The notes beneath the pieces are model-generated. The model had not been told where the DNA came from. It saw only the letters and a program-made list of their open reading frames with translations, and did not search any database. This document shows positions 11,008 to 30,179 of a stretch of 64,000 nt of DNA, in pieces; positions within the stretch are counted from its first letter, which is position 1, and the number at the start of each line of letters is the position of its first letter. The translations under genes were made by a program, and so were the position numbers. The stretch is from Candidatus Thorarchaeota archaeon (GTDB lineage Archaea > Asgardarchaeota > Thorarchaeia > Thorarchaeales > Thorarchaeaceae): assembly GCA_019057475.1 (NCBI GenBank), contig DXJO01000010.1:352001-416000 (forward strand). The letters are read 5' to 3'.

Positions 11008-11919
11008 TCACTGATTCTCCTTTGACAGTACCCCCACCGCTCTCCTGACCAACCAACGCTTCTTGGGGCCGGTCACACTCATCCTTGTGCCCAACAGGTC
11101 GATGTGAAGAGTGGTCGGCACCACAGGGATGCTCCCCTTGTCGAAGAGATATCCATAGACTGCCGTGCTTACTAAGGCAGCATTGAGCCTGCAGGCTGCT
11201 GCTACTGATGGGGGTGTGCCCTGTTTTGCCCGCCTTTTGCCCAACTGGATGTCTATTCCGGTTGGTCGGGCAGACAGGAAGTTCACAGCGTAGCGTTCAA
11301 TGAATCTCTGCCACTCCTCTGAATCGGGGTCCTCAGGTATCTCTCCAAAGAACTCTCTGAAGGATGGACTCCTTTCAGGGTCGAAGATGGCAATGCCAGC
11401 GCCCCACCCAATGACGGGACAGGTGAACACCGGAATGCCTTTCTCCCGTGCAAGGTCGAACATCCTCTCTCTCAGGTGCATCACAGAGACATCGAGCCCG
11501 TCAATGACGATGTCTGCGCCATCTACGAACTCCTCCACGTTGTCCCATGTGACACCGTCAACGTAGGCTCTAACATCCGCATCCGGATTGATCTCAAGAA
11601 TCTCCTGAGCAATCACATCTGCCTTGTTACGGAACATAGTGGACATCCTAGCACCGAGCTGACGGTTGAAGTTAGAGACCTCGAACACATCGGGGTCTGC
11701 AATCCTGAAGTGTTGAAAGCCCATTTGGGCAAGGGTGATGGTGACATCCGAGTTACCACCGACCCCAGCCTGAGCAATCACAACCCTGGATATCATCTGC
11801 TGCTCCACAGACGTGACTATCCCTGTGTTCCGGTCTGTCATCCTTAGGTAGTGGTCGTCAACTGCATGGAACTCGGGGAGGACACCATCCCACCACTTTG
11901 GCTCTGCATCTGACGACAT
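11008..11919 (-). CDS. ThiF/MoeB/E1-family adenylyltransferase
   Basis: AQAGVGGN, IADPDVFEVSNFNRQ, KADV...INP, DIVIDGLD; lacks the Zn-binding CxxC pairs of MoeB. Confidence 0.88.
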   Translation of the reverse strand: MSSDAEPKWWDGVLPEFHAVDDHYLRMTDRNTGIVTSVEQQMISRVVIAQAGVGGNSDVTITLAQMGFQHFRIADPDVFEVSNFNRQLGARMSTMFRNKADVIAQEILEINPDADVRAYVDGVTWDNVEEFVDGADIVIDGLDVSVMHLRERMFDLAREKGIPVFTCPVIGWGAGIAIFDPERSPSFREFFGEIPEDPDSEEWQRFIERYAVNFLSARPTGIDIQLGKRRAKQGTPPSVAAACRLNAALVSTAVYGYLFDKGSIPVVPTTLHIDLLGTRMSVTGPKKRWLVRRAVGVLSKENQ

Positions 11920-11920
11920 C

Positions 11921-13462: not shown

Positions 13463-13530
13463 CTGCTCGAATCCTCCTTGCAGCCCGGGACACAAGTCCA
13501 AGATTGCCTTGTAAGATTACGAGTTCTAGA

Positions 13531-14000: not shown

Positions 14001-14169
14001 AGGGTACAGATTATCACGGTTGAGGACTCCAATAATGCCACATAATGCCCACATCAGCACAGGGGGGCCTATGGGCTCCTTTGTTAACTTCTAAAGAAAG
14101 AATAGGGCCCCATCAGGCGGGCAGGGTGAGAATAGGTCTACTTGCACGTTCTCGGTAGTTTGAATATAG
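14001..14169 (+). promoter_or_regulatory. Conserved upstream element copy 2 (recombination operon)
   Basis: Box A AGGGTACAGATTATCACGGT (14001-14020), box B AACTTCTAAA (14086-14095), TATA-like TTGAATATAG (14160-14169). Confidence 0.8.
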
Positions 14170-14221
14170 TTTGTTCTCACTGATTGCATCATACAGTGAG
14201 AGCACTGGGAGCGTATGTTCA

Positions 14222-14953
14222 GTGTCGAGGCTTGAACGAATACTAAAAGCTTCAATTGGTCAAGAGGGTCCGGAGACGGACTTGACCATGTTCTTCCAAA
14301 TGGAGTACAACACCCCTGACAGAAGCGTCATACGAGCGCGGATGGTCACCGACCAAAGCATCGCAGTGACTATCGGGCTGAGGAGCGCGATACTTGAACC
14401 CTTTAAGAGATTCCACATACCCTCAGATGGCGAATTCCTTGCGTGCGACATTCTAGGACTGATACCCGCTGTTGCAGTGATGCTGCGGAATCAGAGTCGA
14501 GGGGTGGCTGCGGGAACCATCGAGCGGGACTCGACAACGCGAATCATACTTGCATTCGAGTCTGAGATACCCATGAAAGACAATGGACTGAGAGATCTAG
14601 CATCCACCATCACCTGTACGATGCGGCAGTGGGGTGAGTGGACCAATGTGTTGCTCGGGACTCTTGATCGCGATCCTGTAGTGGGTGACTGGGAAATTGA
14701 CTGGCGTGAGTTTCTTGCTGGAGAGGCTGGATTCGTTACGATGCCGTGGTTCAGATCACTTGGCTTTCAGGACCGCAAGATCGCGCTCTCTAGGACAATA
14801 CTGGCGGCTGAGGCTTTGCTAATCTCAGTTCTCAATAGAAAGCAGCTCATAGACCCCGTCGCAATGCAGGTTCGGGACTGGATGAAATCGCTCAGCCCAC
14901 AGCCACACGTCACTGGATCTCATTACATCACTTTGGAAGAGGAGGTATTCTGA
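14222..14953 (+). CDS. Hypothetical protein, first gene of recombination operon
   Basis: Long ORF (possible start 14171); GTG 14222 follows GGGAG; TGATG coupling to next gene. Confidence 0.7.
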   Translation: MSRLERILKASIGQEGPETDLTMFFQMEYNTPDRSVIRARMVTDQSIAVTIGLRSAILEPFKRFHIPSDGEFLACDILGLIPAVAVMLRNQSRGVAAGTIERDSTTRIILAFESEIPMKDNGLRDLASTITCTMRQWGEWTNVLLGTLDRDPVVGDWEIDWREFLAGEAGFVTMPWFRSLGFQDRKIALSRTILAAEALLISVLNRKQLIDPVAMQVRDWMKSLSPQPHVTGSHYITLEEEVF

Positions 14954-15420
14954 TGGTATTGGTTAATGACTTTCACAACTCCGCGCGAACAATCTACAGT
15001 CCGATAGTAGATACCGCTTGGCTCGCTGGAGCACTGGCTGGGACTGACCATGCAGGTTCACGGAATGGGGACTGGTACTGGGCTCGATTCTTGGATGAGG
15101 TGAAAGAGATGGCATCGCTAGCAGGGAGTGTTCGACCCACTGAACCCGGAGCAGAGCCGGATGACAATGGATCAGTCTACGATGTTATTGGAGGATACAT
15201 CAGCACTGCAGGACGATTCACACAGGAGGGCTTGAGGTTCAAGGTGCCTGTGAGCAGGCAGCAAAAGATGGTTGGCCTGTTCGGGGGAATCCTCCTGAGA
15301 GAGCATGAAGATATGATTGTGAGAGGTTATGACCTCTCAAAATTCACCAGGCTGGTTCCTATCAGGGGGCCACTGGCTGATAGGATTAGCAAGACGAAGA
15401 GTACGGAGGTAATGAAATGA
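14953..15420 (+). CDS. Hypothetical protein
   Basis: Translationally coupled on both sides (TGATG, ATGA); SD GGAGG. Confidence 0.7.
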   Translation: MVLVNDFHNSARTIYSPIVDTAWLAGALAGTDHAGSRNGDWYWARFLDEVKEMASLAGSVRPTEPGAEPDDNGSVYDVIGGYISTAGRFTQEGLRFKVPVSRQQKMVGLFGGILLREHEDMIVRGYDLSKFTRLVPIRGPLADRISKTKSTEVMK

Positions 15421-16565
15421 CAGAGCTTACAGAGGTTCCAGGAGTCGGTTCCGTTGCAGCAAAGCAACTGAAGAACGCCTACATCACGACTGCGGAGCTG
15501 TTGGCCGTACAGAATGCCGACGAGCTGAATAATAAGGTAACACTTGGCGAGGGCACATGCACGAATATAATCCTGGCGGCCAGAGAGCTGCTTGGGATGT
15601 TCGCCTTCAAGTCTGCCCTTGAGGTCGAGAAGGAGAATGAGTCCAAGCCCCGGCTGAAGATAGGGCTTGAAAACGTTGACAGGCAACTGCTTGGAGGTCT
15701 TGAAATTGGCTCCCTTGTGGAGTTCTATGGCAAAGCCTCAGGCGGCAAGACACAAATGTGCGCCCACCTTGCGATAAGATGTCAGCTTCCCTTCGATGAG
15801 GGCGGCATTGAGGGTCGCGTAATATGGCTTGACAGTGAGTCATCATTCAAGACATCAATACTACGTGCGAACGCGAAGAGGTGGGGGCTTGACCCCGAAG
15901 TGGCTTTGGGCAACATTCAGACGATGCCTATAGTCACCTCGTACCATCTGGAACAACTCTTCGCCCGGATTCCACAGATGTGCATTGAACAGGGCATCAA
16001 GATGGTGGTCGTTGACTCACTGACCGGATTCTTTCGGGCAGAGCATGGGGGATTGGGTTCACTCGCTGTGCGACAACAGAGGATCAACAGGCTCCTGAAC
16101 CTCATGCGCCGAGTGGCAATGGCGACTGACGTGATGTTCGTCTACAGCAATCAAGCCATCTCAAGGATCGGTCCATTCCCCGTGCTGAACGCCCCGGTGG
16201 GAGGGCATATAGTATCGCACGCGTCTGATTATCGCTTCATGTCAACAGAGGGAAAGAGCGGAAAGCGCAAGCTGTACCTCAAGGACCATGCTGGGCTAGC
16301 TAACTTCAATGTTGAATTCAGCATAGGGTGGGGTGGATTCTACAACGACGAGAACGAGAGGAAAAAGATCGAACCCAAAATAGTGGAATACCTCAAGAGC
16401 AAGGACATATCCGCCGAGATACAGGAGAAGGACAAGAAGAAGGAGACAAAGAAGGTCAAGAAAGCCGAGAAGACCAAGAAGACAAAGAAATCAAAGAAGG
16501 CAGAAGCCAAGGCTGAAACCGAGGTAAAGCTGGAGGCGGAGGTAGTGCTGAAAGCAGAGGGTTAA
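15417..16565 (+). CDS. RadA/Rad51-family recombinase paralogue with Lys-rich C-terminal tail
   Basis: N-terminal HhH (LTEVPGVGSVAAKQL), FxxA motif FKSA, Walker A GKASGGKTQ, Walker B MVVVDSLT, SNQA, PVGGHIVSHASD. Confidence 0.88.
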   Translation: MTELTEVPGVGSVAAKQLKNAYITTAELLAVQNADELNNKVTLGEGTCTNIILAARELLGMFAFKSALEVEKENESKPRLKIGLENVDRQLLGGLEIGSLVEFYGKASGGKTQMCAHLAIRCQLPFDEGGIEGRVIWLDSESSFKTSILRANAKRWGLDPEVALGNIQTMPIVTSYHLEQLFARIPQMCIEQGIKMVVVDSLTGFFRAEHGGLGSLAVRQQRINRLLNLMRRVAMATDVMFVYSNQAISRIGPFPVLNAPVGGHIVSHASDYRFMSTEGKSGKRKLYLKDHAGLANFNVEFSIGWGGFYNDENERKKIEPKIVEYLKSKDISAEIQEKDKKKETKKVKKAEKTKKTKKSKKAEAKAETEVKLEAEVVLKAEG

Positions 16566-16569
16566 GGCG

Positions 16570-17010
16570 ATGAGCGGCATGTTTAGAATATACAAATGCC
16601 CCTCCTGTGGCGCGATTGCCTACACGAGCGTGGAGAACGAGCAGGAAACCAGCATGTGTGGCTTGTGTAGAGGCCTAATCCTTGACGAGCCTGGCATACT
16701 CTACTCTGCAACAATCAACCAAGCTGAAGACCTTGTCGCAGAGATGGTCCTCCATAACATGTCGGAAAATAAAGTATCAACACCAACGAGCGGGCTCGGT
16801 GTGAGGCGCAGAGTGCTCAACATTATCGAGTGCCTTGTGGAGCTAAACAAGGGAAGGCCAGTGAACATTGACAGTGTGCTTAAGGAATGTGTGGGTGCCA
16901 AAATCAAGACCGAGAGGAGCCTCCATTTCCTAGATGTGCTTGAGGGCCAGGGACTGGTCATAGTTGATAGTGGTCATGTCAGTCTGGGCGAGGAGGGCAC
17001 AGACCCTTGA
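16570..17010 (+). CDS. Zn-ribbon plus probable winged-helix protein
   Basis: CPSC...CGLC; C-terminus resembles wHTH (VLNIIECL...LHFLDVLEGQGLV). Confidence 0.65.
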   Translation: MSGMFRIYKCPSCGAIAYTSVENEQETSMCGLCRGLILDEPGILYSATINQAEDLVAEMVLHNMSENKVSTPTSGLGVRRRVLNIIECLVELNKGRPVNIDSVLKECVGAKIKTERSLHFLDVLEGQGLVIVDSGHVSLGEEGTDP

Positions 17011-17618
17011 CCCACCTGTATGTCCCCCCCTCATCAAACAATGTGACGCCCAGCTCCACAATCAATCTTGTCAATCTACTGATGAGAAACACTAGCAGAC
17101 GAGTGACGGTACTCCAAGTAGGAGGAAAAGTGGATCCTGACCCAGAGGTATATGTTGTCACCCGGGTGGACTGGCGGGATAAGGATCTCAACAGGCCGAT
17201 TTTGCCCCAATTGCCAAAGGTGCTTTCGATGCTGGAAACTCTTCGAGGCTCTAGGGGTGTGCCCAAGGAGATTTACCTTGACAGTACGGATGGTGTTGTA
17301 TGCTACATACCAACCGGCATCAGAATGTCTCAGCTACCAAGCAGCGCCAAAGCATCAGTTCAATTCATCATGTCTGTAGCAAACCAAACGGTTAGCCACT
17401 TCGATTCGACACGGTCTGAGGTCGAGGACTGGTTCTGGAGGACAGCTCGCAAGAGTGGCTTCAATCCCGAGATTGTCGAGAGGATTGCCCGAAGGGAGAA
17501 GCACTACGACTCGCCATCTCACGAGCACAGGTTTAGCAAGGTCATAGAGAACTACTTCTCTCTGAGGTTCAAAGTCTATCGAGCAGAATCATGCCTGAAG
17601 CTGGAGGGAGCGTATTGA
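17007..17618 (+). CDS. Hypothetical protein
   Basis: Coupled ORF (TTGA overlap upstream, TGATG downstream). Confidence 0.7.
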   Translation: MTHLYVPPSSNNVTPSSTINLVNLLMRNTSRRVTVLQVGGKVDPDPEVYVVTRVDWRDKDLNRPILPQLPKVLSMLETLRGSRGVPKEIYLDSTDGVVCYIPTGIRMSQLPSSAKASVQFIMSVANQTVSHFDSTRSEVEDWFWRTARKSGFNPEIVERIARREKHYDSPSHEHRFSKVIENYFSLRFKVYRAESCLKLEGAY

Positions 17619-19594
17619 TGGATGTGATGCGATGGTTCCCGTACACTCCAAGACCTCAGCAGGATCGGGCCGTGACGCATGCTGCCCATGTGTTCCAAGA
17701 TAAGACAGTGGGCCTGCTATCTGCAGATTGTGGAGTAGGAAAGACAATTGCTGTACTCTCAGCGTATCTTGCAGTACGGGCGAAAGATGCATCATCGCGG
17801 TTGATTGTCCTTGCCAGGACGCACTCGCAGTCAAAAGTCTTTGAGGATGAGCTTAGAGTTCTCAGGGAGGAACCGGCCGCAATATCAGATGGACTCCAAT
17901 TGACGGCCACGAGTATGGTTTCACGGGGGCATGTCTGTCCATTGACCGACAAGATGAACTCGGTGTCGTCAGTCGGGTTCCTACGTGCATGCGCACAGAT
18001 GATAGGCTCAGGAAAGTGCAGCATGTACTGGAGTTTCTACAAACGGGGCGCCGAGGGTCGGCCTCAAATCCGCGACGCTGCCCGGCAAACTGTTGATGCC
18101 CTGCTGAATGAGGGCGTGGTCACTCGGGATGAAGCGGAGGACATGGGGCTCTCGGAAGGAGTATGCCCGTATGAGGTCTTGAGGTGGTGTGCGCGCAATA
18201 GTAGAGTAGTAATTGGTCCATACGGCTACCTATTCAGGGAGAGAGTGCGGAATGCGCTCCTCTCGTCGCTTGGAATGAGCTTACATGAAGTCGACTTGAT
18301 TGTCGATGAAGCACACAACCTAGCATCCCATGTACTGGGCTCGGAAACCGCGTGTGTCAGTCTATCAGACCTTGAATGGCTGAGAAAGCATGACACCGAG
18401 ATAGAGCGTGAAACGCAGGTCGAATGGCTCCCTGAGGCGGTTGACTTTCTCTGGGAAACCGTGATGACCAACCTTGATAATATCCACTCCGAAAAGAACC
18501 TTGAGAAGTGGGATGTACTGCCAAGGTTTGTAGATGAGTCACAGATACAAAATCTACTGCTTGGGACGAAGATTGGTCTGGATGAGTCTGATGGCACAGT
18601 ACCCACGGAGACCCCGCTGGATCGATTAGTAGAGTTCCTCTACACGGGGCACCGAGCAGTTCTGAGTGAGGACTGGCATGTCACGCTAGAGGTCAGAAAG
18701 CCTTGGAGGCAAGAGTCGAATAGCCGTGATGCCGATCTGAAGATCAGACCACTGAACGCCGCTGGATTATCAGCTCCCGTACTCAGAGGTGCAAGGTCTG
18801 CGTTGCTTATGTCCGGTACTTTGAGGCCACTGCAGCACTATGCGGATCTGTTGGGAGTGTCAGGTGCCCTGATGGAGAGCCTGATGAGTCCGTACCCCCA
18901 TGGGAGTCGCCTTGTGCTCATTGACAAGGACATCACAACCAAGTATACAGCGCGGGGCGAACGGCTGTGGAGGACCATAGCAAGAAGAATCTCGACAACC
19001 TTGACAGCGATGCCCTCCGAGAAGAGCGCTCTAATTGCCTTCCCTAGCTACAGGATGATGGAGGATGTTCTGAGCTACGGCATAGATTGTGGATTCAGAG
19101 CAAGGCTAGAGGAAGCTCCAGGAGATCGCATTGAGATTGTTAAGGACGCACTTGAGGAAGGGCCCCATACGGTGTTTTGTGTATATGGAGGCAAGTTCTC
19201 TGAGGGCGTTGACCTCGTGGAGGGCGGGTCGAGCATGGTTGACCTGATTATCGGGGTTGGGATTCCATTCAGTCCCCCAACCAGCTACCAAAAAGCCCTT
19301 CAAGAATGGTACGAGAGAAGATTCGGGAAGGGTGCAGGCTACTACTACTCGTCAATTGTACCGTCTTTTCGCATGGTTGCACAGCTTGTAGGTAGACTTC
19401 GACGGAGTCCTGAGGATCGGGGGGTGGTCGTGCTTCTCGACAAAAGGTTCCAGCAACACATCAGAGTCTTTGGAGATGACATGGTTTCGGACCACTGGCC
19501 CTACTCAGGAGAGGACGAGATGAGGGGTGCCATTGATCTATTTGTAAGCCAGAGGAACAGAACGGAGGAGGCGAAGGGAGCGGTTGGCGTCTAG
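17618..19594 (+). CDS. XPD/Rad3/DinG-family Fe-S DNA helicase
   Basis: Q motif FPYTPRPQQ, ADCGVGKT, four Cys (HVCP, RAC, KCS, VCPYE), VDEAHNL, MSGTL, FPSY, GKFSEGVD, QLVGRLRR. Confidence 0.9.
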   Translation: MDVMRWFPYTPRPQQDRAVTHAAHVFQDKTVGLLSADCGVGKTIAVLSAYLAVRAKDASSRLIVLARTHSQSKVFEDELRVLREEPAAISDGLQLTATSMVSRGHVCPLTDKMNSVSSVGFLRACAQMIGSGKCSMYWSFYKRGAEGRPQIRDAARQTVDALLNEGVVTRDEAEDMGLSEGVCPYEVLRWCARNSRVVIGPYGYLFRERVRNALLSSLGMSLHEVDLIVDEAHNLASHVLGSETACVSLSDLEWLRKHDTEIERETQVEWLPEAVDFLWETVMTNLDNIHSEKNLEKWDVLPRFVDESQIQNLLLGTKIGLDESDGTVPTETPLDRLVEFLYTGHRAVLSEDWHVTLEVRKPWRQESNSRDADLKIRPLNAAGLSAPVLRGARSALLMSGTLRPLQHYADLLGVSGALMESLMSPYPHGSRLVLIDKDITTKYTARGERLWRTIARRISTTLTAMPSEKSALIAFPSYRMMEDVLSYGIDCGFRARLEEAPGDRIEIVKDALEEGPHTVFCVYGGKFSEGVDLVEGGSSMVDLIIGVGIPFSPPTSYQKALQEWYERRFGKGAGYYYSSIVPSFRMVAQLVGRLRRSPEDRGVVVLLDKRFQQHIRVFGDDMVSDHWPYSGEDEMRGAIDLFVSQRNRTEEAKGAVGV

Positions 19595-20183
19595 TCTTGC
19601 TAGTAGTCAGTTGAGGTATACCGTGCCCGGGGCTGTAGGTGCAGCTTGGTCACTCAGGATGGCCCTTGACCAGTCATATCGGGTTGTTCTTGAGTCCACA
19701 GTAGGTCTGTTCCTACTACTAGTCGCCCTCGTAATCTACCTGAAGGGACGCGAGAAGAACCTTCTGCTTTGGAATAACGATACTGGAATTCTCGCCACTG
19801 TAAAGCCTCTCACAGTAGAAGTGTGTGCAGCTCGACTCATGACCAGTGTCCCGCTTGGGATTGACCTAAGCCATTCTGCGGGCAGAGTCCTTGAAGCCAT
19901 GACAATCAGGTTCAATGAGGAAAAGAATGCGGAACTGCGGTTCTTTGTCTGTCGCCCTTTGGGGCGTGGGGTCACACGCGTAGGCATGATGGTGGTTCGT
20001 CAAGCACCGAACATGCGCAGGTTGGTTTCTGTTGTTGAGAAGCTGTCAGAGAAGGTGCTGGAGGATGTAATGGTCTTGGAGAGTGCTCTGCGCGCAGCCT
20101 ATGCCCATATGCCCATTGCCCGAGCGGAGCTAGAAGATATCACTCTCATAAACTCTGGAGGTGTGGATTTCATTGTCAACTGA
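19584..20183 (+). CDS. Membrane-anchored hypothetical protein
   Basis: Hydrophobic VGLFLLLVALVIYL; overlaps both neighbours. Confidence 0.65.
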   Translation: MASSLASSQLRYTVPGAVGAAWSLRMALDQSYRVVLESTVGLFLLLVALVIYLKGREKNLLLWNNDTGILATVKPLTVEVCAARLMTSVPLGIDLSHSAGRVLEAMTIRFNEEKNAELRFFVCRPLGRGVTRVGMMVVRQAPNMRRLVSVVEKLSEKVLEDVMVLESALRAAYAHMPIARAELEDITLINSGGVDFIVN

Positions 20184-20460
20184 GGTGCAAGCCCAGATTA
20201 CAATCCCCACATCGCTACGCCCTCGGGCTGTTATGGACTCATTATCAGTCGGCCATGGTTACAGTTGGATTGTTCTTGTTTCCACGCCTCTGAGGATAGC
20301 TCATGGAAGCACATCAGATGGGGACCTGCCAGAGCTACTGATTGTAGGTAAGACCCTCCTGATGAGCGGGGGAAATGAAGTCTACATCAACCGCTTGAGG
20401 AGGATGCTTGAGGTGTTGTCGGGCACTTCCGTAAGAGTACGGAGGGATGGCGATGTCTAA
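20173..20460 (+). CDS. Small hypothetical protein
   Basis: TTG 20173 follows SD GGAGGTG; fills the gap between coupled genes. Confidence 0.55.
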   Translation: MSTEVQAQITIPTSLRPRAVMDSLSVGHGYSWIVLVSTPLRIAHGSTSDGDLPELLIVGKTLLMSGGNEVYINRLRRMLEVLSGTSVRVRRDGDV

Positions 20461-22804
20461 GGGCGGCCACATCATGGGCTCGAAGCCTGAGCGAGACCCT
20501 CTGGAAGAGATAAAGCAAGCCCAGCTTTGGGTCACACAGAGCACCGAGCTTAGATGGATCGATAGAAGTGTTCGTCCTTCATGGACGAGAGTCTTTCTAG
20601 CAACAGCAGCGATTATCATAGGAACATTCTGGATGCCTTGGCTTACAATCACGATGACGGCCCTAGCGCTAGTCATTCTTTCGATTCTTCTCAACTTATT
20701 CTCGGTGAACAGGACCCTGAAGGAATGGACACGTGTTCCCGAACCTGACCTAGCGGTCGAGGAAGATGAGAAGAAGAAGTACGTCTGCAGCAGGGGAACA
20801 GGAGGCGAGCAGCATATCGTGGGCCTGCACCTCAAGTCAGTTTCCTCCGACCTAGGCGGAGATCTTGGAAAACTCATTCGAGGCGTAGATACTGGGTACG
20901 GTCTGTGCCTCACTGTGGCAATGAGCCCTCAGAATCCCAAGAATATCCTTGAGGGTGATATCCTGCCGGAAGCACTTCAGGTCTACTTGGAGAGCATGTC
21001 ATCAAACGGGCTCAGGGGCTACATGCTTCGTAGAGGCGGCCTGTGGAAGGCAAGCACGTCGGTATATGGACATTCAAGAGACCGATTTGCGCTTCCCCGA
21101 TTTGAAGCATCCGTCAAGGGAGCAATTCCGGAACCCGGCTGGAAGAGAGAAAAGGCCAAAGATATCTTGGAACGAATTGCGACTCTTCAACTCACTAGGA
21201 ATGGCGCATTCCATGCGAGCGGGAGCGAGTTGACGGAGTGGCTCGTCCAGCTCAAGAGCGAACTTGGACCAGAGGTTGGCAGTAACGTACCAGGCGAGTT
21301 CATAGCACCGATACGTGACAGGCTGGGTGATTACCGCCTTGGCGTGACAATCAATCCTGAGACCCTCCAGACTGGACCGATGGCAGGCATGAGTCATAAT
21401 GATCTAACTGGAGGGATGTTGCTCTGTGGAGGTGATTGGCTGGAACGACGCAGAGTAATGATGCTCTTGACCAAGCAGCTTCTGGATGCTGGCAAGCGAG
21501 TAATGATTGTGAGTTCCAAGCCCGAAGCGATGGAGTTCGCAGCTCTTACAGACTCAGGGATCGGGTTGACTCTTGGAACGGACCTCGTTCTCAATCCAGT
21601 CGATGCTGAGGACATTCCGAGAAGTCTGTACGTACCTCAATTGAAGAGGGCACTTGAAACCATTGCAGACACAGACCTGAGTTCTGCGGCAGATTTTGAA
21701 CTGGCATTAGGGAGAGCGGTTGCCTTGTCGAATGCAACGCTCGCAGATGTCACACTCCCAAGCGTGAATGCGGATATGATGGATGGCACAGAGGCGCCTG
21801 TGACGGATAAGCCCTCTCGGAAGACAGAAGCAGGGATGGAAGCAGTCAAGGTGCTTTACCAGGGGTCAGGCTCAAGAGCCTTCTACGGACACCAGACTGT
21901 CAAGCTATCTAGGCTAGCAGAACAGCAGCTGAGCGTCACGGTCATATCATTGGGGTCAATCATTCTTGATACATTCGGGTGGGACCTCTTCAGCATGAAG
22001 CTGGCCGGCCTGCGCAGTGATTCCGATCTAGTTGTGATCTTTGACGGTCCTTTCAATCTCAAGCTCTATGGACCGTACGATTCCAGGTACAAGAGGCGCG
22101 TCCCGTTGACTGATCAGCTCACACGCGATTTGACGAGAAGAGGCCCTTTGATTGTGAGCATTGAGAGACCATCAGGTCTTGCCAAGGAAGTCGTGGCCAG
22201 GTTGTCATCGTGCATATCCCTCCGTCTTCGCGACAACTGGGATATCGGTGTTGCTACAGACATTCTCGGGTTAACGGTCATTGGTCATGGGTTGCACAGT
22301 AAGGCGCGCCAGTCTTCTAGAGAGTCATCATATCTGAGAGTGATGGAGAAGGGAATTGCGTTAATGGTACATGATGGTGCCGAAACCTGCCAGCCAATAC
22401 AACTTGACGATGCCCCTGCTTTACCGCCACCATCGACCGATGAGTTGTCGAACAGGACATCAGGGATTTTCAATGGCGCAACCAGCGATGATGGACACGC
22501 GAGCCACAAGACGCTGATAGGTCACGTAGCTGGAAGTAAGGCTGACTTGGCGGTGAGCGTGCTCAGATTGCTTCAGAGATACGAGCCCCTCACAGAGGAG
22601 GCACTTCGCAGATTCATCATCTCAAGCAGCGGACAGGAGGATATGGATGTCGAAGCGGTGCTTGTCAGGCTGGAACACGCCAGCGTGATCTTGCGGGGGC
22701 ACGAGTCACATGGGGGAGTGTCCTACGCGAATTATCGACTAACCATGAAAGGCACGATGGCACTACACCAGATGGCGGGAGAACAGGCCACGGCTACAGG
22801 ATGA
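20447..22804 (+). CDS. Membrane-anchored HerA/VirB4/FtsK-superfamily protein with degenerate ATPase motifs and C-terminal wHTH
   Basis: 2 N-terminal TM helices; GMLLCGGDWLERRR at the Walker A position; LVLNP; VVIFDGP; LIVSIERPSGL...ISLRL..D matches the HerA SQRPS motif; C-terminal ...RLEHASVI...YRLTMKG. Confidence 0.65.
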   Translation: MAMSKGGHIMGSKPERDPLEEIKQAQLWVTQSTELRWIDRSVRPSWTRVFLATAAIIIGTFWMPWLTITMTALALVILSILLNLFSVNRTLKEWTRVPEPDLAVEEDEKKKYVCSRGTGGEQHIVGLHLKSVSSDLGGDLGKLIRGVDTGYGLCLTVAMSPQNPKNILEGDILPEALQVYLESMSSNGLRGYMLRRGGLWKASTSVYGHSRDRFALPRFEASVKGAIPEPGWKREKAKDILERIATLQLTRNGAFHASGSELTEWLVQLKSELGPEVGSNVPGEFIAPIRDRLGDYRLGVTINPETLQTGPMAGMSHNDLTGGMLLCGGDWLERRRVMMLLTKQLLDAGKRVMIVSSKPEAMEFAALTDSGIGLTLGTDLVLNPVDAEDIPRSLYVPQLKRALETIADTDLSSAADFELALGRAVALSNATLADVTLPSVNADMMDGTEAPVTDKPSRKTEAGMEAVKVLYQGSGSRAFYGHQTVKLSRLAEQQLSVTVISLGSIILDTFGWDLFSMKLAGLRSDSDLVVIFDGPFNLKLYGPYDSRYKRRVPLTDQLTRDLTRRGPLIVSIERPSGLAKEVVARLSSCISLRLRDNWDIGVATDILGLTVIGHGLHSKARQSSRESSYLRVMEKGIALMVHDGAETCQPIQLDDAPALPPPSTDELSNRTSGIFNGATSDDGHASHKTLIGHVAGSKADLAVSVLRLLQRYEPLTEEALRRFIISSSGQEDMDVEAVLVRLEHASVILRGHESHGGVSYANYRLTMKGTMALHQMAGEQATATG

Positions 22805-22854
22805 TGTGATATGACGAGTCTGAAGATGAGAACGCAACCGCAGGAGGAACAACC

Positions 22855-25059
22855 GTGACATCCGCCATGGATACCCCTACCTACGTTAAGGGCGTTCTTG
22901 CAGGTGTGGGACTCACTCCTAGGGGTATCCAGAGCAAGGCAATAGAGGCTGGACTACTTGAGGGCAAGAGTATCATGGTATGTTCCCCTACAGGCTCGGG
23001 TAAGACGCTTGTCGGAGAGATGGCTCTCCTCAGAGGGGTCAGCGATATTCGCAAAGGCATCTACCTCGTTCCCCTGCGGGCACTGGCCACGCAGGTTGTT
23101 AGTGTACTCAGGGAGCGCTATGCTGACCAGGGAATCAGGATTGAGATCTCCACAGGGGACTTTCAGACCGATGGCTCAGACCTTGCTGAGGCTCAGATAC
23201 TTGTAACGACCTATGAAAGAGCAGACTCCCTCGTGAGGCACAAGGTTGACTGGCTTAACAAAATCGGAGTGCTGGTCATTGACGAAGTACAGAATATCGG
23301 GCACACATCAAGAGGCGCGCGTTTAGAGAGCGTCATCATGAGGATGCGGAAACTGACTGAGGACCTCCAGATAGTTGCCCTATCTGCTACTGTCGGAGAA
23401 CCATACATGCTGGCTGACTGGCTAGGGTGTCATCTGGTGGAGTCTGATGTCCGTCCCGTGCCGTTGACATGCAAGCTGGTTCCAACAACAGACCGTGAGA
23501 AGACCGTGCAGCAACTCGTGATGGCCACTGTGCAGGCTGACGGTCAGGTCATTGTATTCCACAGGACCAGACGCGAAACTGAGGCTGAGGCTAACCGTCT
23601 GAAGGATAGTGTGGGGCGACAACTGCGCACTAAGGAACGTACGACCCTTGATAGGGAGATGGACTCCTTGGAGAACTGGAATGTCACAATACCCACGGAA
23701 ATGCGGCCACTTCTACATGATGGTGTTGCATACCACCATGCTGGTCTTGGAGCCCGCACGAGAAGGCTTGTCGAAACCATGTTCGGTCGTGGGTTGCTGA
23801 GGGTGGTCTGTGCAACCACAACACTGGCAGCCGGGATGGATCTACCTGCACGAACAGTGGTACTCACATCCGCAAGGTCTCCCCAACATCACAGACGGTT
23901 CCTTCCCGCTAATCAGGTCCATCAGATGCTGGGCAGGGCGGGTAGACCGGGAAAGGATGTTAGAGGTTTCGGAGTGATTCTCACTGGTAGTCAAGGCGAG
24001 GCTAGGATGCTGACAAAGGAGTACTTTGCGAGTGAAGTCAACCCTGATACTGGAACGCCAGTACTGACGCCAAACTACGAGCCGGTGACTAGCGAGCTTG
24101 GGACATCGACCAATCTCACGGAACAACTGCTAGTAGCACTCGACTTTCTAGGAGCGGCATCCCTTGAAGAAGTCGAGCAGGAGTACCTTGGAGAGTCATA
24201 TCTGTTCCATTGTGGTAGATGGCTAACGAATACTCCCATGAGGATTGTGCAACTCGGTGAGGTGACTGCGCTAGCCGCAATTGAGCGCCACGCCAATCCG
24301 AATATGGTCCGTTCTGCAAGAGAGAACATACTGGGTACGGTCAAGATTAGAGAGCGGGGTGATACAGTCATCGGGGGTATTGTTTCTGTGCTGAGGAGTG
24401 GCCAACAGACATGCAGGTTTTCAGCAAGGATGACATCCGATGGTACGCTGGAGGGGCCGATGTGCTCATGCGGCAGCCCCATGACCAAGCATGGCTTTCT
24501 GTGCAACCATCTTGTTGCGCTTGGCATGGCAGCATCATCGGAGCTGACTCAACTGGCCAATTTCGTCATCCCCCTCGCGTTGAGCGAAACGAGTCCGAGT
24601 GGCCTTCTGATACGTCTTGGACTCTTGGAGGGTGGTGAGGGCGACAAGTTGAGACCCACAACCCTCGGCAGAACTGTGAACAGACTCTACCTCAAGATTT
24701 CAACCTTCAAAGAGATGATGGCTCTTATTCCGACCATTGAAAGTAACATAGTCCTAATGTCGGTGCTGAGACATCTGGTATCACTTGAAACAGGTCAGAA
24801 ACAGGGTGAAACCTTTGACACCCTCATCGCTTCTGTCGCATCAACCAATCTCTCGATGAGAGAAATGGCTCGATTGGCCAACCTTGCTGTTGGCGACGTA
24901 AAAGCACTACTTGACAAGTCGCGCTCGCTTCTATACTCGATAGTGGCAGTGGCAGACAGGGGCAACATGGAGCGGGTGTCAGAGATGGTACACGACCTTC
25001 TTTCGATCATAGATTCAAGATTACATCACATGGAGAGCGAAAACAATGACAGTGACTGA
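22855..25059 (+). CDS. Ski2-like/Hel308-family SF2 helicase with inserted SWIM Zn finger
   Basis: SPTGSGKT, PLRALA, TGD, TYER, IDEVQ, LSAT, YHHAGL, TTTLAAGMDLPA, QMLGRAGRPG; CSC-x10-CNH. Confidence 0.9.
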   Translation: MTSAMDTPTYVKGVLAGVGLTPRGIQSKAIEAGLLEGKSIMVCSPTGSGKTLVGEMALLRGVSDIRKGIYLVPLRALATQVVSVLRERYADQGIRIEISTGDFQTDGSDLAEAQILVTTYERADSLVRHKVDWLNKIGVLVIDEVQNIGHTSRGARLESVIMRMRKLTEDLQIVALSATVGEPYMLADWLGCHLVESDVRPVPLTCKLVPTTDREKTVQQLVMATVQADGQVIVFHRTRRETEAEANRLKDSVGRQLRTKERTTLDREMDSLENWNVTIPTEMRPLLHDGVAYHHAGLGARTRRLVETMFGRGLLRVVCATTTLAAGMDLPARTVVLTSARSPQHHRRFLPANQVHQMLGRAGRPGKDVRGFGVILTGSQGEARMLTKEYFASEVNPDTGTPVLTPNYEPVTSELGTSTNLTEQLLVALDFLGAASLEEVEQEYLGESYLFHCGRWLTNTPMRIVQLGEVTALAAIERHANPNMVRSARENILGTVKIRERGDTVIGGIVSVLRSGQQTCRFSARMTSDGTLEGPMCSCGSPMTKHGFLCNHLVALGMAASSELTQLANFVIPLALSETSPSGLLIRLGLLEGGEGDKLRPTTLGRTVNRLYLKISTFKEMMALIPTIESNIVLMSVLRHLVSLETGQKQGETFDTLIASVASTNLSMREMARLANLAVGDVKALLDKSRSLLYSIVAVADRGNMERVSEMVHDLLSIIDSRLHHMESENNDSD

Positions 25060-26860
25060 AGACGAACGGCCGACACATGAGGCTGAGGGGTCCAAGGCCC
25101 CCAAAGGAGAATTGAAGGCCTACGATATAGTGAAAGTCCTAGAGGCTACTGACCATCTAACTCATGTTTCCCCAAATGGGCTGGTGTTGGGGGTAAGGAT
25201 ATCGGGGATTTCAGGGGCAAGAGGGGTTCACATCGAGATAGTTCATATCCTGGACCTCAGGGAAGCAGTATTTGGCAAGGGTGGTTTTGCCTTACAGGCA
25301 TCAGTTCTTGAGAGTGTTAACAGGGAACTCCCTAGCCTCTTGAAGGACGTTGGGCTTCGAGAACGGTTGGAGGAAACATCACCGTTGACACCATGGGGAC
25401 GAGTGCCCATGCATACTCTGCGTTCTGCGTCTGGTAAGCGAAAGTCCTTGGTCTATGAAACCAGACTTGTTTACGTTGTAACTCAGGATGTCCGATCCTC
25501 TGCGGACCTGAGCTGGTTGACTGCAAATGGAAGGGTGGTCAGTGTGCATGACTTTTCCCTTGCTAGAAAGAGCGACGCAAGAATCATTTTGCCCGACCTC
25601 GAGAAGAGCCTAATCATGGACAAGTGGGATGATTTCTCAAGGGCTGTCCGGAATGGATGGTACGGAGTGCTAGCGGCTGGGGCTAGTGTGCTCGGCGGTG
25701 TGACATCCCTCATGGTCCTGTTATCGAACTCAGGCAACCTCATCGCACCATTGGCCTTCATGGGCGTGTGTGGGGCGGTGGCAGGGCGGCTACTCAAGCA
25801 GTCCCACAAAGGGCTAAACGAATTCCGCGAAGTAATTGAGAGTGAGCAGGCAGGAATTGCATCTCTTGGCGATAGGAAACGTGTGGCGGACTCGATAAAG
25901 AGCAATGAGAATAAGATTAGGCTCATTGGCGACCTGAGCTTTGTGATATCCCCCTTAATGGCGTCTGCATCGAAGAACCTTGAGGATGGCGACGTCAACG
26001 GTGCCGTGGTGCTTGCAGAAAGGGTCTTGGATGAGCTCGTGAGGCTCTCGCCATCTGATGAGGACAAGAAGGGTATTATGACTGGGGACGTTGGGATTGA
26101 GAGATTCATTGGCGTCTTCCGCAATGTAGGCGCAGACCTGACAGAAGCCGAGGAGGTCTCTCTGGCCCTTGCCTACACGGCAATAACAGGACATATCACC
26201 ACGCCACTAGGGGTGGAAGAAGCCCTGACGCATATGGCTGTCTTGAATACAAGTCTATTCAACGCAGGTGTGTTGAGTCCAACAGTGAGGGGCTCCATTG
26301 ATGATATGTTCATCTCTAGAGCATTTCATGTAATCGTCGACGAGTTCGATGAAGATCTTGCCAAGCCAGAAGAGGAGATTGTGCAGACCGTTGACGAGCA
26401 TGGCTCTGGCATGGAGGAGTTGCTTGGGGACATTGCAAAGTCCGGTCCGGTTGCAGAGGAGCACGAGGAGGAGGCTAACCCCAAGGTGGACGAAACCCCT
26501 AAGGATGAACCGCCAGAAGGAGAGTCTGCTGAGATAGAGTCTACAGAGGATGAGGCTAAAGCCGATCGTGTTAAGGCTGTTGAGGTCGAAATCGCGCCCC
26601 CTAGCGAAGCGGAACCTGAAGGGGATCAGGATGATGCTGATGGCAAGGAAGAGCCAATTCCTGAGGCCCCAGATGATGTGGATGTCACAGAGGCAGAGCA
26701 ACCAAAGGCGCCTGTGGTGATGCAGTCTTCACTTGATGAGGTTGAGAAGGAGAAGGATCCCTCTACGGGACCTGAGGTCCTCAGCAGGAGGAATAAAAAA
26801 CAAGCCAAACAGAACGCCATGATTCGAAAGAAGCGGGAGAGTGGAAAGGTCGCAGCTTAA
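25046..26860 (+). CDS. Membrane protein (2 central TM helices) with acidic disordered C-terminus
   Basis: Hydrophobic hairpin WYGVLAAG...GAVAG; E/D/P-rich tail ending in a basic patch. Confidence 0.7.
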   Translation: MTVTEDERPTHEAEGSKAPKGELKAYDIVKVLEATDHLTHVSPNGLVLGVRISGISGARGVHIEIVHILDLREAVFGKGGFALQASVLESVNRELPSLLKDVGLRERLEETSPLTPWGRVPMHTLRSASGKRKSLVYETRLVYVVTQDVRSSADLSWLTANGRVVSVHDFSLARKSDARIILPDLEKSLIMDKWDDFSRAVRNGWYGVLAAGASVLGGVTSLMVLLSNSGNLIAPLAFMGVCGAVAGRLLKQSHKGLNEFREVIESEQAGIASLGDRKRVADSIKSNENKIRLIGDLSFVISPLMASASKNLEDGDVNGAVVLAERVLDELVRLSPSDEDKKGIMTGDVGIERFIGVFRNVGADLTEAEEVSLALAYTAITGHITTPLGVEEALTHMAVLNTSLFNAGVLSPTVRGSIDDMFISRAFHVIVDEFDEDLAKPEEEIVQTVDEHGSGMEELLGDIAKSGPVAEEHEEEANPKVDETPKDEPPEGESAEIESTEDEAKADRVKAVEVEIAPPSEAEPEGDQDDADGKEEPIPEAPDDVDVTEAEQPKAPVVMQSSLDEVEKEKDPSTGPEVLSRRNKKQAKQNAMIRKKRESGKVAA

Positions 26861-27539
26861 GGATGATTCCATGTTCGGGCTTGACGGTCTGATACATCTC
26901 TCGGGAGTGGCTGGTTCTGGCAAGACCCTCTTTGCAGTCGCCTTGGCTTCCAAGGCTACGCGGAATGGAAAAGTGCTATGGATCAACACCGATGCGAAGA
27001 CCGCATTTGTCAATCATCTGAAGGTCAACATTGATTCGGTAGGTGGCGACAGGACAGCAAGCTCTATTCTCCCAATCGTGGGTCACAAGCGTGTTCGAGA
27101 AGCCATTCTCGATCTTCCAAACAGTCTTGACAATAACACGGTGCTTTTGGTAGTCGACCCCGTAACGCGAGCTTTGGATATGTCCCACAGAGAGGATGTG
27201 ATGTGGGGCAGAGAAATGTTCGAGGAAGTGATGCCCACCCTTGCAGGTCTGGTGATTGCCAGAGGAATGAATGTGGTAATAGTGTCTGAGAGCAGGAGCT
27301 TTGACCGCGAGCCTGCTGCTGTGTTTCATAGGTCGATAGAGAGGTGGGCTGATCACGACTTGGTACTGTCTAGGCGGTATGGCGCATTAACCACGGATGT
27401 GGCACGGTATCAGACTGAAGGTGCCGTTCCTTTTGTGCAATTCACATTAACAGAGGAGGGGGTCGTTAAGGTGACAGAATTCAATGATGGAAACAACTCG
27501 GAGGTGTCGGATTGTTCGGGAAGTCGATGCTCCGCGTAG
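26841..27539 (+). CDS. RadB-like / Rad51-paralogue ATPase (no N-terminal domain)
   Basis: LIHLSGVAGSGKT, KVLWINTD, LLVVDPVT; alternative start ATG 26871. Confidence 0.8.
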   Translation: MERSQLKDDSMFGLDGLIHLSGVAGSGKTLFAVALASKATRNGKVLWINTDAKTAFVNHLKVNIDSVGGDRTASSILPIVGHKRVREAILDLPNSLDNNTVLLVVDPVTRALDMSHREDVMWGREMFEEVMPTLAGLVIARGMNVVIVSESRSFDREPAAVFHRSIERWADHDLVLSRRYGALTTDVARYQTEGAVPFVQFTLTEEGVVKVTEFNDGNNSEVSDCSGSRCSA

Positions 27540-28483
27540 TAGGACTGGTAGTTGCTGGTGCCGTGGCACTTGCCATGGGTGCTAGTCTGCTGAGTTCAGT
27601 TGTGGGAGTTGTAACTGCTCTAAGAGCTGGCGATATAGTTCCGTTCATTGTTGTGACAGTGACCACAGTCATCTTCCTTAGACTATCGGCAAACTCTCCT
27701 GAGAAACGAACACCTATCCACGTATTGCTGGGAGTGCTCGGATGGGCATCTGCAATCTACTTATTCGTGGTTGTTCTGATGTGGGTGCTTCCATTCGGAG
27801 TGGCGCCGGCAATCCTTGCAGCAGGTATCACAGCTGTGCTGTGCGGGTTCGTGAGAGATCCAACCGGACTCAATGAGAAGATGAGTCGAATAGCCGATGT
27901 TTCATCATCGCTAGGTCTGAGTCCTAATGGGCTGAGCATCACCTCGCAATTAGACGGCACTCAGTCGATATGGACGAGAATGGAGCGTTTCCGGTACAAG
28001 GTCATAATCATTCCCCACAAGCATTTCGACACAGTGATTGACCTCCTCAAGGATCGCCCCAAACTTCCAGTATCCTTCACACGACTGGAGGATACAGATG
28101 TTCTGATAGTGAGAGATGAGGAGTGGGCCGACAATGTTCTTGCAGTGTTGAGAGAGAGTGGTGTCCATGACGCATATATTGCCTCCCCTCTTCTTGAAAA
28201 AGCGATACTTGCATTCCCCCTGTTAGAGCATGAACACGGGGTGAAGGTCATTGACTATCAATTCACCTATGACGCCGATACTGTACAAAAGCTACTGGCG
28301 ATTCAACCACTGCGAATGACCGTGTATCCCGATCCTAAGGGGCTCGTTGTGATGGTTTTCAGTGACAGTGTGCTCGGGCTCAACCTTGAACCCCTTCCGA
28401 TGGGAAGAGAAGCATCAGCAGTTATGGCCCGTGTTATATCACACCTACACAGAGGTGAACCTACTATTGGCAGTTCCACTTGA
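27512..28483 (+). CDS. Membrane protein (about 4 N-terminal TM helices plus soluble domain)
   Basis: Four hydrophobic stretches in the first 115 aa; SD GGAGGTG. Confidence 0.7.
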   Translation: MFGKSMLRVVGLVVAGAVALAMGASLLSSVVGVVTALRAGDIVPFIVVTVTTVIFLRLSANSPEKRTPIHVLLGVLGWASAIYLFVVVLMWVLPFGVAPAILAAGITAVLCGFVRDPTGLNEKMSRIADVSSSLGLSPNGLSITSQLDGTQSIWTRMERFRYKVIIIPHKHFDTVIDLLKDRPKLPVSFTRLEDTDVLIVRDEEWADNVLAVLRESGVHDAYIASPLLEKAILAFPLLEHEHGVKVIDYQFTYDADTVQKLLAIQPLRMTVYPDPKGLVVMVFSDSVLGLNLEPLPMGREASAVMARVISHLHRGEPTIGSST

Positions 28484-29180
28484 CTCAATTGACATAGCAA
28501 CAGAGCCTGTGACAAGGCTGGTGCCACGACAACTTGACAGGGTGCTAGGACAACTACTGGTCCCCGGTCAGGTCAGTCTTATTCATGGCCCTGACAGGTC
28601 TCCGCTAACGACCATTGCGCATGCTGTTGCGGTGGGTGCTGTCAAGTCCGGTGGTCGATCCGCATACTTGGATTCCGGTACCAACTACAGCTCCGCCCTC
28701 GCAAGGGTGCTGTGCAACAGAAGTGGCTCTCCGGAGGATTTACTGAAGGAAATTGCAGTGGGGCCGGTGATGAGTCTTGCAGATCTTGAGGGCATGGTCC
28801 TTCAGGTGTCCTCCATGGAAGGTATCACCGTGGTGGTAGTGGATAGTCTGACGGGAGTGCTGAATCTAACTGGGGCTCCGAGGAGCAAGGGCAGACAGAG
28901 GAAACTCTTTGCCACCCTTGAGGTTCTGAGGGGTGTCGTGAATGACAACAATATCCATCTGTTCATCACGGACCACTCGGCAAGGAAATGGAACAATGGA
29001 ACACCAAGCCCGATTGGAGGCAACGTCATCGCGCACGGCGTTGACTCTCTCATCAGAGTGGACCGCCTTGCTGTTAAGGAGGGTTTGTTCAGGCTTGAGG
29101 TGGAAAGAAGTCCGGTCAATCCGGCTGACAAGGGAGTGGTCGTACGGATCGGACTGAATGGAATCAGGTCGATCAAATAG
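28467..29180 (+). CDS. RecA/Rad51-fold paralogue with degenerate Walker A
   Basis: LDRVLG...PGQVSLIHGPDRSPLT (no GKT), YLDSG, VVVVDSLT, PIGGNVIAHGVD; TTG 28467 follows SD GAGGTGA. Confidence 0.78.
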   Translation: MAVPLDSIDIATEPVTRLVPRQLDRVLGQLLVPGQVSLIHGPDRSPLTTIAHAVAVGAVKSGGRSAYLDSGTNYSSALARVLCNRSGSPEDLLKEIAVGPVMSLADLEGMVLQVSSMEGITVVVVDSLTGVLNLTGAPRSKGRQRKLFATLEVLRGVVNDNNIHLFITDHSARKWNNGTPSPIGGNVIAHGVDSLIRVDRLAVKEGLFRLEVERSPVNPADKGVVVRIGLNGIRSIK

Positions 29181-29192
29181 GGGGAACTGGGA

Positions 29193-30179
29193 GTGGGCGT
29201 AAAGAAATGGAGCTTCGTGCCTTGGGAGTGGGCAAGCATTGACGAGCTCTCTCCAAGGACAATCGCCATAGACGCTCCGAACTACCTGATGCGCAGACTA
29301 TCAACTATTCGAAGGAATGGCAAGTTCAATCGAGTCCCTCTAAGTCATATTCATGTCGCTCTCGGAACAATCCGCGCAGCACTTCGTATTCATGTCCTTC
29401 CCGTATTGGTGTTCGATGGTCCTCCTGAAACCCTGAAACGTGCTCCCAATCCCGAGCTCATTATCGCAGCTCACGACCTATACCGCACCTTCTGTTCTGA
29501 GAGAGACCCCTACAGCCACAAGCTGGTCAATGACCTGCAGGACAGCCCTGCGCTGAGGATGTACTTTGCAGCGTTTCACGTCAAGGACCTTTGCAAAAGT
29601 TTGGGTATCCCATGTATCAACTCGCCCTCTGAAGCTGAGATGGCGGCTGCAGTCTTGTGTCGTGATGGGTTGGTTGGCACGGTTGTGTCGAATGATGCTG
29701 ATGCACTATTATTCGGAAGTCCACATGTCACAAAACAACTCCATCTTACAAAGAGAGCGATTTTCAGAGCCACGCGAAGTGAGCTTGAAGCCAAGATGGG
29801 CCTAGACCTAGAGCATCTGAGGGACCTTGCTATTGTTTGTGGGTGTGACTTCCACAAGCAGGGCGTGAAGGGAGTGGGGCCTCGAAAGGGAGTAGTTCTC
29901 CTTCAGAGGCACGGAGGACTTGTAGGGCTTCTAAAGGCGCGAGGCTATACCGCATTTCAGAGAGAAGAGTACATCCTCGCACGTGAGGTATTCGACGAGC
30001 CTACTCACATGTCCAGCAATGGGTTTGACATCACTCTCAGGCCTCCAATGGTTCCAATGGCAGTCAGGCTACTCAGCGCTGTCATGGGAACGGAGAAGGC
30101 AGAAGAAACCGTGGCGAAGATAGTACGACTGTGGAAAGGGTTCGGCGAACAACAGACAACACTGGAGCAATTTGCATGA
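29193..30179 (+). CDS. FEN1/XPG-family structure-specific nuclease paralogue with PIP box
   Basis: IAIDAPNYL, VLVFDG, SPSEAEMAAA, SNDADALLFG, GCDF...GVKGVGPRKG, C-terminal QTTLEQF. Confidence 0.88.
   Translation: MGVKKWSFVPWEWASIDELSPRTIAIDAPNYLMRRLSTIRRNGKFNRVPLSHIHVALGTIRAALRIHVLPVLVFDGPPETLKRAPNPELIIAAHDLYRTFCSERDPYSHKLVNDLQDSPALRMYFAAFHVKDLCKSLGIPCINSPSEAEMAAAVLCRDGLVGTVVSNDADALLFGSPHVTKQLHLTKRAIFRATRSELEAKMGLDLEHLRDLAIVCGCDFHKQGVKGVGPRKGVVLLQRHGGLVGLLKARGYTAFQREEYILAREVFDEPTHMSSNGFDITLRPPMVPMAVRLLSAVMGTEKAEETVAKIVRLWKGFGEQQTTLEQFA

Follow-up and report, generated by a model that had tools for sequence, protein, structure and literature searches.

A second full-length RadA in a Thorarchaeia genome raises the question whether it is a recombinase with a task of its own, and which of its features point to that task. 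The open reading frame 15417-16565 of the window (the whole stretch of DNA analysed, 64,000 nucleotides) codes for a protein of 382 amino acids, named RadA2 here. The original prediction regarded it as a filament-competent, specialised recombinase, conceptually like Dmc1, with an FxxA polymerisation motif and a Lys-rich tail likened to that of histone H1. In our study, the H1-like tail contributes little, and the value of the locus is found to lie in its operon context and in the residue pattern of the protein.

Architecture and descent of RadA2

RadA2 is a second full-length and divergent RadA paralogue of this genome. As had been predicted, it is not the sole copy; the canonical RadA lies on another contig (G000:C39:35512-36609) with 34% identity to RadA2, and five shorter RecA-fold proteins are also present. 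The N-terminal HhH domain, the FKSA motif and the Walker A sequence were found as claimed (Table 1). Pfam HHH_5 matches the N-terminal domain with an E-value of 1.7e-5, slightly below the curated cut-off, and the Rad51 core spans aa 80-307 (E 2.8e-48), so that the HhH domain and RecA core of a canonical RadA are both present. The AlphaFold2 model (pLDDT 80.6) has RAD51/RadA structures as its top Foldseek matches. Against the curated NCBIfam RadA models, RadA2 reaches 222 of the 259 and 203 of the 361 bits required. A core-only RadB or aRadC identity, from which the protein had already been distinguished, was rejected on the presence of the N-terminal domain and on the RadB model score of 71 of 172 bits. 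The E-values against RadA/RAD51 range from 1e-49 to 1e-42 and those against RAD51B or XRCC3 from 1e-14 to 1e-10, which places RadA2 closer to RAD51 (1e-42) than to the eukaryotic paralogues.

The nearest database records to RadA2 are Thorarchaeota MAGs. The RadA2 profile matched 54 of the 79 Thorarchaeales genomes at E < 1e-110, plus one fragment, and its best score on 222 other Asgard genomes was 1.7e-92. The RecA-family phylogeny, named as a check in the original prediction, placed RadA2 in a clade apart from the housekeeping RadA and from Rad51/Dmc1; two Dmc1 rows of the tree were labelled from motifs and tree position, and the eukaryotic RAD51 paralogues were left out of the trees, their comparison with RadA2 being one of E-values. 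The AU test rejected the union of RadA2 with Dmc1 (p 0.0002) and with the Thorarchaeia RadA (p 0.006). Under the mixture model, RadA2 groups at 99/92 with the second RadAs of Freyarchaeum deiterrae (WXG41457.1) and Jordarchaeales (MEM4447737.1) and with two metagenomic proteins. The pairwise identity with the Freyarchaeum deiterrae protein is 32%, and orthology with it is probable, judged from the tree, the Walker A motif and synteny, with long branches involved. A wider grouping with the second RadAs of Lokiarchaeia and others was supported under LG+G and weak under the mixture model (72/43), and is not claimed here.

The RadA2 clade is already delineated as a phylogenetic group. In the available parts of the preprint of Ferlez et al. 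(bioRxiv 10.1101/2025.02.19.639135), 18 Asgard groups are distinguished and 14 accepted as recombinases; the representative of Group 7 is OLS31719.1, and the v1 supplement lists a pET28-RadA-Group 7 plasmid. OLS31719.1 is the RadA2 orthologue of Thorarchaeota AB_25 (locus L062), with 53% identity and the same operon position. The available current text gives no Group 7 results, function, genomic context or tail analysis. Group 8 of the same source, as far as given there, has the representative MCD6483719.1, which falls in the cluster of P0014 and branches beside the RadA2 group. The literature search found no published description of the operon within the library searched. Matsuo et al. in 2025 (PMC12722695) described RadA duplicates of full length in Asgard archaea, which have no connection with the Rad51/Dmc1 split; their second RadA clade covers Heimdall-, Njord-, Gerd- and Lokiarchaea, and Thorarchaeia are in the dataset and not discussed in the text. 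RadA2 is probably a duplication separate from that clade, since the other second copies fall elsewhere in our trees.

Table 1. Coordinates of RadA2, its sequence features and the genes of its operon (positions in the window).
Feature	Position	Strand	Remarks
Operon gene 1, uncharacterised protein	14171..14953	+	start may be GTG 14222
Operon gene 2, uncharacterised, 155 aa	14953..15420	+	stop overlaps RadA2 start; not detected in a few genomes
RadA2	15417..16565	+	full-length divergent RadA paralogue, 382 aa; AF2 model, Foldseek
N-terminal HhH domain (aa 3-57)	15423..15587	+	family-invariant segment aa 26-33, unlike canonical RadA
Polymerisation motif FKSA (aa 64-67)	15606..15617	+	FxxG in 42/46 orthologues
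Walker A GKASGGKT (aa 105-112)	15729..15752	+	Lys, Thr invariant; RAD51 F129 position is Ala in 41/46
Catalytic Glu141 (RAD51 E163)	15837..15839	+	invariant
Walker B (aa 197-201)	16005..16019	+	Asp200 invariant
DNA loop L1	16032..16076	+	R229, R241, Q242 equivalents invariant; R235 position is Leu213
DNA loop L2 region	16149..16220	+	archaeal Pro-Asp replaced by Ile-Gly here; G288, G289, H294 equivalents invariant
Folded C-terminal extension	16326..16400	+	GWGG motif and well-predicted helix aa 312-328; conserved; not in canonical RadA; AF2 model
Lys-rich low-complexity stretch (aa 338-365)	16428..16511	+	16 K in 28 residues; genus-specific
Zn-ribbon protein, probably with winged helix (from sequence)	16570..17010	+	also in Freyarchaeia clusters
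Conserved 203-aa protein	17007..17618	+	confident structure model
XPD/Rad3-like helicase	17591..19594	+	second copy in genome
Membrane protein, 199 aa	19584..20183	+	hydropathy
Small conserved 99-aa protein	20161..20460	+	~30 Thorarchaeia genomes, 48 loci
Membrane-anchored HerA/VirB4/CedB-like protein	20447..22804	+	no Walker A GK[ST]; feature score 0.91, a lead
Hel308-like helicase	22855..25059	+	SWIM-type CxC..CxH finger aa 537-552; extra copy
Two-TM protein	25046..26860	+	acidic C-terminal region
RadB-like core-only RecA paralogue	26841..27539	+	Walker A intact
Multi-TM protein	27512..28483	+	no Pfam or NCBIfam match
RadB-like core-only RecA paralogue	28362..29180	+	Walker A dead
FEN1/XPG-like nuclease	29193..30179	+	second copy in genome

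The operon and its distribution

RadA2 is the third of 15 genes that abut or overlap one another (14171 to 30179); this context, which the original prediction had left out, is the strongest clue to function. The genome has other copies of the XPD-, Hel308- and FEN1-like genes outside the operon. A comparison by features places the HerA-like protein near HerA, CedB and VirB4, which serves as a lead, and no GK[ST] P-loop was found in 14 Thorarchaeia and 7 other Asgard homologues. For the 203-aa protein, the PDB, VIA-wide (best Z 5.4) and Atlas searches gave no clear match, which does not imply a new fold. The operon TM proteins had no Pfam or NCBIfam match, and neither a DNA channel nor a protease or regulator target was recognised among the operon genes. 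In 40 aligned loci no conserved element was found 5' of the operon, where a short imperfect inverted repeat is present in this window (14062-14111); a sigma-70 promoter scan, with a model unsuited to archaea, stayed at chance level.

The Ced/Ted DNA-import systems of Thermoproteota combine membrane proteins with a membrane-anchored protein of the HerA/VirB4 type. The RadA2 operon is alike in having membrane proteins and a HerA/VirB4-type protein, with CedB among its Atlas look-alikes (0.91). It differs from these systems in the dead P-loop where an active membrane ATPase would be expected and in carrying recombination enzymes of its own; no CedA-type channel or pilin was identified among its TM proteins by Pfam and NCBIfam models.

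RadA2 was always found linked to the operon, and is present or missing together with it; the downstream gene order is the same in all Thorarchaeia loci where the contig extends far enough. Among Thorarchaeales, RadA2 and the HerA-like gene occur together in 50 genomes, one of the two occurs in 9 and neither in 20, a tally which is no independent test as the genes are linked. In G001, G008, G019 and G022 (90-92% complete) RadA2, the HerA-like gene and the operon helicase were not found and are absent as a block, and three of these genomes, checked for the 203-aa gene, were also without it; such absences from MAGs may reflect assembly gaps. In G236, most of the operon is present, but its first three genes, RadA2 among them, could not be found. 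At this locus (L205, G236:C1:85000-104999; a single contig, 86% complete) a shortened Zn-ribbon gene comes first in the operon. The related RadA of Freyarchaeia and Jordarchaeia sits among Hel308-like, RadB-like, split HerA-like, FEN1-like and membrane genes. Other Asgard families have a membrane HerA-like gene, often with Hel308, without a RadA of the RadA2 type.

P-loop-dead membrane HerA-like genes with membrane neighbours, often with a Hel308-like gene, were observed in many Asgard families (loci L186, L187, L190, L191, L193, L195, L196, L197 and L200); in family f9 the HerA-like protein is ~1260 aa long, and a membrane protein of 700 aa with HhH motifs is encoded nearby. A GH3-family gene stands just 5' of the operon in many Thorarchaeia (L025, L026, L027, L030, L034, L035, L036 and L179), and in this genome a GH3-family gene and a ThiF gene lie upstream (11008-13501). 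On the other side, a gene on the opposite strand (31172-32920; no Pfam match) follows 3' of the FEN1-like gene in many Thorarchaeia loci. Further downstream, the 2608-aa protein encoded at 33891-41717, with Ig-like repeats and a prenyltransferase-like toroid region, is probably a surface protein. A methylmalonyl-CoA-mutase-like gene, which matches its profile at positions 172-512 only, adjoins the gene of a 1457-aa protein with several HTH motifs (together 49035-54508); the window also encodes a full-length mutase subunit, at 7554-9227.

Residue pattern and probable function

Residues were counted in 46 distinct RadA2 orthologues with positions mapped onto human RAD51, and the ssDNA-contact residues used were those listed in PMC13186703 and PMC8682777. 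K133, T134, E163, D222, H294, D316, R229, R241, Q242, G288 and G289 (RAD51 numbering) are invariant in 46/46, and the F86 equivalent is kept in 45. These invariant positions span the ATP site, the inter-subunit cap and most of the ssDNA contacts; the Walker A Lys and Thr, catalytic Glu, Walker B Asp and ATP-cap His and Asp of canonical RadA are present in every orthologue. In comparison to archaeal RadA (P. furiosus 1pzn, S. solfataricus 2bke), RadA2 has in common the domain order, the fold, Walker A and B, the catalytic Glu, the ATP-cap His and Asp and most L1/L2 contacts, whereas it has no L1 Arg and no L2 Pro-Asp, carries Ala for F129, mostly FxxG, an altered pocket strand and a C-terminal extension, and is optional and operon-bound.

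The L1 arginine (R235 of RAD51) is replaced by Leu or Ile in all 46 orthologues. In L2, Pro-Asp has become Ile-Ser in most and Ile-Gly in others, with Pro in three and Asp in none, and the canonical combination of the L1 Arg with L2 Pro-Asp or Pro-Gly is lacking; an aromatic residue in L2 is retained in most. Four residues past R235, at the S239 position, an Arg or Lys is present in 35 of the 46 and may substitute for the lost L1 charge. The RadA2 of this genome is without this basic residue and without the R303/K304 equivalents. In 39 of the 46 orthologues, at least five K/R are kept in the basic beta-hairpin by which the displaced strand is captured (PMC12360782). The pocket strand, at RAD51 A190-N196, has been remodelled, and so has the DSP motif. 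The family-wide changes are hence the loss of the L1 Arg, the rebuilding of L2 and of the subunit interface, and the gain of a folded C-terminal extension.

A distinct clade, operon linkage, patchy presence and intact ATP-site and ssDNA-backbone residues are observed for RadA2. We give an even chance to the explanation that RadA2 is an old, dedicated, ATP-dependent and filament-forming recombinase, which would serve an optional membrane-associated DNA-processing module and not housekeeping. RadA2 would polymerise on ssDNA through a remodelled and probably self-specific interface, as the donor motif, the acceptor strand and the N-domain segment have all changed. The ssDNA would be supplied by the operon helicases, and the RadB-like and SWIM proteins would load RadA2 onto it. 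Since the L1 Arg/L2 Asp pair has been lost, the filament may then pair DNA with relaxed checking, and flaps would be trimmed by the FEN1-like nuclease, which would finish the product. The likeliest substrate may be DNA that the TM proteins and the dead HerA-like scaffold carry through the membrane; of all steps this one is the least certain, and it is proposed tentatively, since neither a channel nor an active motor was identified.

In favour of a recombinase are the ATP-site and ssDNA residues invariant in 46/46, the sequence closeness to RadA/RAD51, the conserved gene order, the similar gene company of the Freyarchaeum and Jordarchaeales second RadAs, and, in the parts of the preprint available, the retention of Group 7 among the accepted recombinase groups. 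The absence of the genes as a block in four genomes speaks for the module. Against the recombinase stand the loss of R235 in 46/46 and the altered F129, pocket strand and DSP motif, and for this copy also the missing S239 basic residue and R303/K304 equivalents; against the module stand the lack of a recognised channel, the dead P-loop of the HerA-like protein and the operon of G236 without RadA2. A predicted complex of the RadA2 homodimer with ATP scored 0.01, which counts neither for nor against homotypic assembly. That the protein is a specialised recombinase, as originally predicted, stays plausible on its intact catalytic and ssDNA-binding residues, but the arguments drawn from the tail, from FxxA and from Dmc1 found no support. 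As a speculation that we consider rather improbable as a whole, an ancient machine for DNA exchange, coupled to the membrane, might be common to Thorarchaeia and Freyarchaeia/Jordarchaeia. It would possess a mismatch-tolerant recombinase, mediators, helicases and a nuclease of its own and would work apart from housekeeping repair, as an independently evolved division of labour between recombinases for cell-to-cell genetic exchange among the archaea related to eukaryotes.

The main rival explanation, possible though on the doubtful side, is that RadA2 is an XRCC3- or RAD51C-like mediator, which would bind ATP and ssDNA and, helped by the SWIM helicase and both RadB-like proteins, would nucleate or cap canonical RadA filaments without strand exchange of its own. 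R235 holds the complementary strand in RAD51 and Dmc1 (PMC8682777) and the R235E change severely impairs strand exchange (PMC11788929); its loss in all 46 orthologues is the chief argument for a mediator role, to which FxxG and the altered pocket strand can be added. Moreover, the RAD51 paralogues XRCC3 and RAD51B/C/D and the Shu complex resemble RadA2 in the retained N-terminal domain, in the degenerate polymerisation motif and in being accompanied by a HELQ/Hel308 helicase, by a SWIM finger and by other paralogues; the RadA2 operon encodes two more paralogues and a SWIM finger. Human XRCC3 keeps an N-terminal domain and a pocket accepting the FxxA of RAD51 while acting as mediator (PMC13186703), and HELQ binds the BCDX2 paralogue complex (PMC13623763).

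The weight of the lost R235 as near-proof of a mediator had to be toned down, since Ile stands at this position, in an otherwise canonical sequence, in five genomes of two other Asgard families, each time in their best-scoring RadA. Those genomes also hold a more divergent RadA copy in which the Arg is kept. Further against a mediator, RadA2 is by E-value much nearer to the true recombinases than to the paralogues, it has the full set of ssDNA and ATP-cap residues, its displaced-strand hairpin is mostly retained, and real erosion is seen in dead RadA2 derivatives elsewhere in Thorarchaeia. The most canonical RadA is without the L1 arginine at the loci L206-L213 (families f17 and f20) and L162 (f23), and the divergent second copy of f20 keeps it.

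It is also conceivable, though we regard it as unlikely, that a RadA2 filament merely coats, protects or senses ssDNA as a transfer intermediate or signal and then hands over to the canonical RadA. Such a role would agree with intact ssDNA-backbone and ATP residues beside a lost post-synaptic Arg, with the membrane-protein surroundings, and with the novel C-terminal extension, which is folded and could serve as a docking site for a partner. However, the orthologues largely keep the site for the displaced strand, for which a pure coat would have no use, and the operon lacks a recognised protease or regulator target.

If RadA2, as a dedicated recombinase, exchanges strands without the L1 arginine, it would be a natural test of how the RecA family holds and proofreads the complementary strand, a question that underlies the fidelity difference between Rad51 and Dmc1. 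If it is a mediator, an archaeal set like that of the RAD51 paralogues, with one full-length and two short paralogues, SWIM and Hel308, would be encoded in one operon.

Polymerisation motif, Lys-rich tail and other RadA copies

The FKSA of RadA2 aligns with the polymerisation motif of the P. furiosus, S. solfataricus and human proteins. FxxA is present in RadA2 and three close kin only, the other 42 orthologues having FxxG, and human XRCC3 keeps similar features as a mediator, so that FxxA cannot be taken as proof of filament competence as was done earlier. The RAD51 E169 position holds Trp in 29 of the 42 FxxG orthologues and in none of the four with FxxA; co-evolution of the two sites was considered and dropped, because the FxxA sequences form one clade and hence represent a single event.

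The proposed likeness to Dmc1 is an analogy at most. Dmc1, like RadA2, is a second full-length recombinase beside a general one and has no L1-L2 salt bridge. Kinship was rejected, as common descent fails in the AU test and the Dmc1 pattern of a kept L1 Arg with L2 Pro-Gly is not found in RadA2: Dmc1 loses the Asp and keeps the Arg (PMC8682777) and Pro, whereas RadA2 loses the Arg and, in 43/46, the Pro.

The Lys-rich stretch exists as had been described, but it is not the end of the protein, being followed by 17 more residues, mostly acidic or hydrophobic, up to the C-terminus. The C-terminal tail of histone H1 is long, rich in Lys, Ala and Pro, with S/TPKK repeats and a conserved basic charge. 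The stretch in RadA2 has 28 residues and no proline, and the tail is net acidic in 42 of the 46 orthologues and strongly basic in this genome and one same-genus genome only; the H1-like tail is therefore no feature of the family. It had further been suggested that the tail pairs with acidic tails of neighbours. The acidic C-terminal region of the 25046-26860 product is equally acidic where the RadA2 tail is acidic, which speaks against such a pairing, and the gene at 49035-53408, which codes for a multi-HTH protein, does not belong to the operon. With acidic tails in most orthologues, a neighbour whose acidity is unlinked to them and 12 ORFs of this genome with at least 12 K in 28 residues, the Lys tail is probably a local low-complexity feature, incidental to function. 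On the same grounds, a specialisation defined by a basic tail that acts as an H1-like DNA or chromatin binder, or as an electrostatic partner of acidic neighbours, appears very improbable, despite the Lys content of the stretch and the basic tail of the same-genus orthologue.

Purifying selection acts on RadA2, judged against the same-genus orthologue, in which 290 codons show 49 synonymous-only and 20 amino-acid-changing differences. That RadA2 is the sole canonical RadA of the genome or a decaying duplicate is practically refuted, in spite of the label 'RadA' which NCBI gives to its orthologues, by the canonical copy on the other contig, the scores under the curated RadA cut-offs, this selection, the conservation in 54 genomes and the AU rejection of a Thorarchaeia-only duplication (p 0.006).

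Further eroded full-length derivatives of RadA2, with degenerate L1 and L2, occur in many Thorarchaeia (L033:15157-16269, L126:8589, L128:8046, L129:371, L180:5686-6684 and L038:10562-11542); one stands in tandem within the operon and some lie beside GH3/ThiF genes. A RadA paralogue with a second, C-terminal HhH domain was observed near RadB-like and membrane genes (L183:10001-11230 and L164:2610-3842). Outside the window, this genome encodes two core-only RecA-fold proteins with a dead Walker A (G000:C36:28585-29355 and G000:C20:1157-1903), of which the one on C36 keeps FxxA and could cap RadA filaments or act like ImuA.
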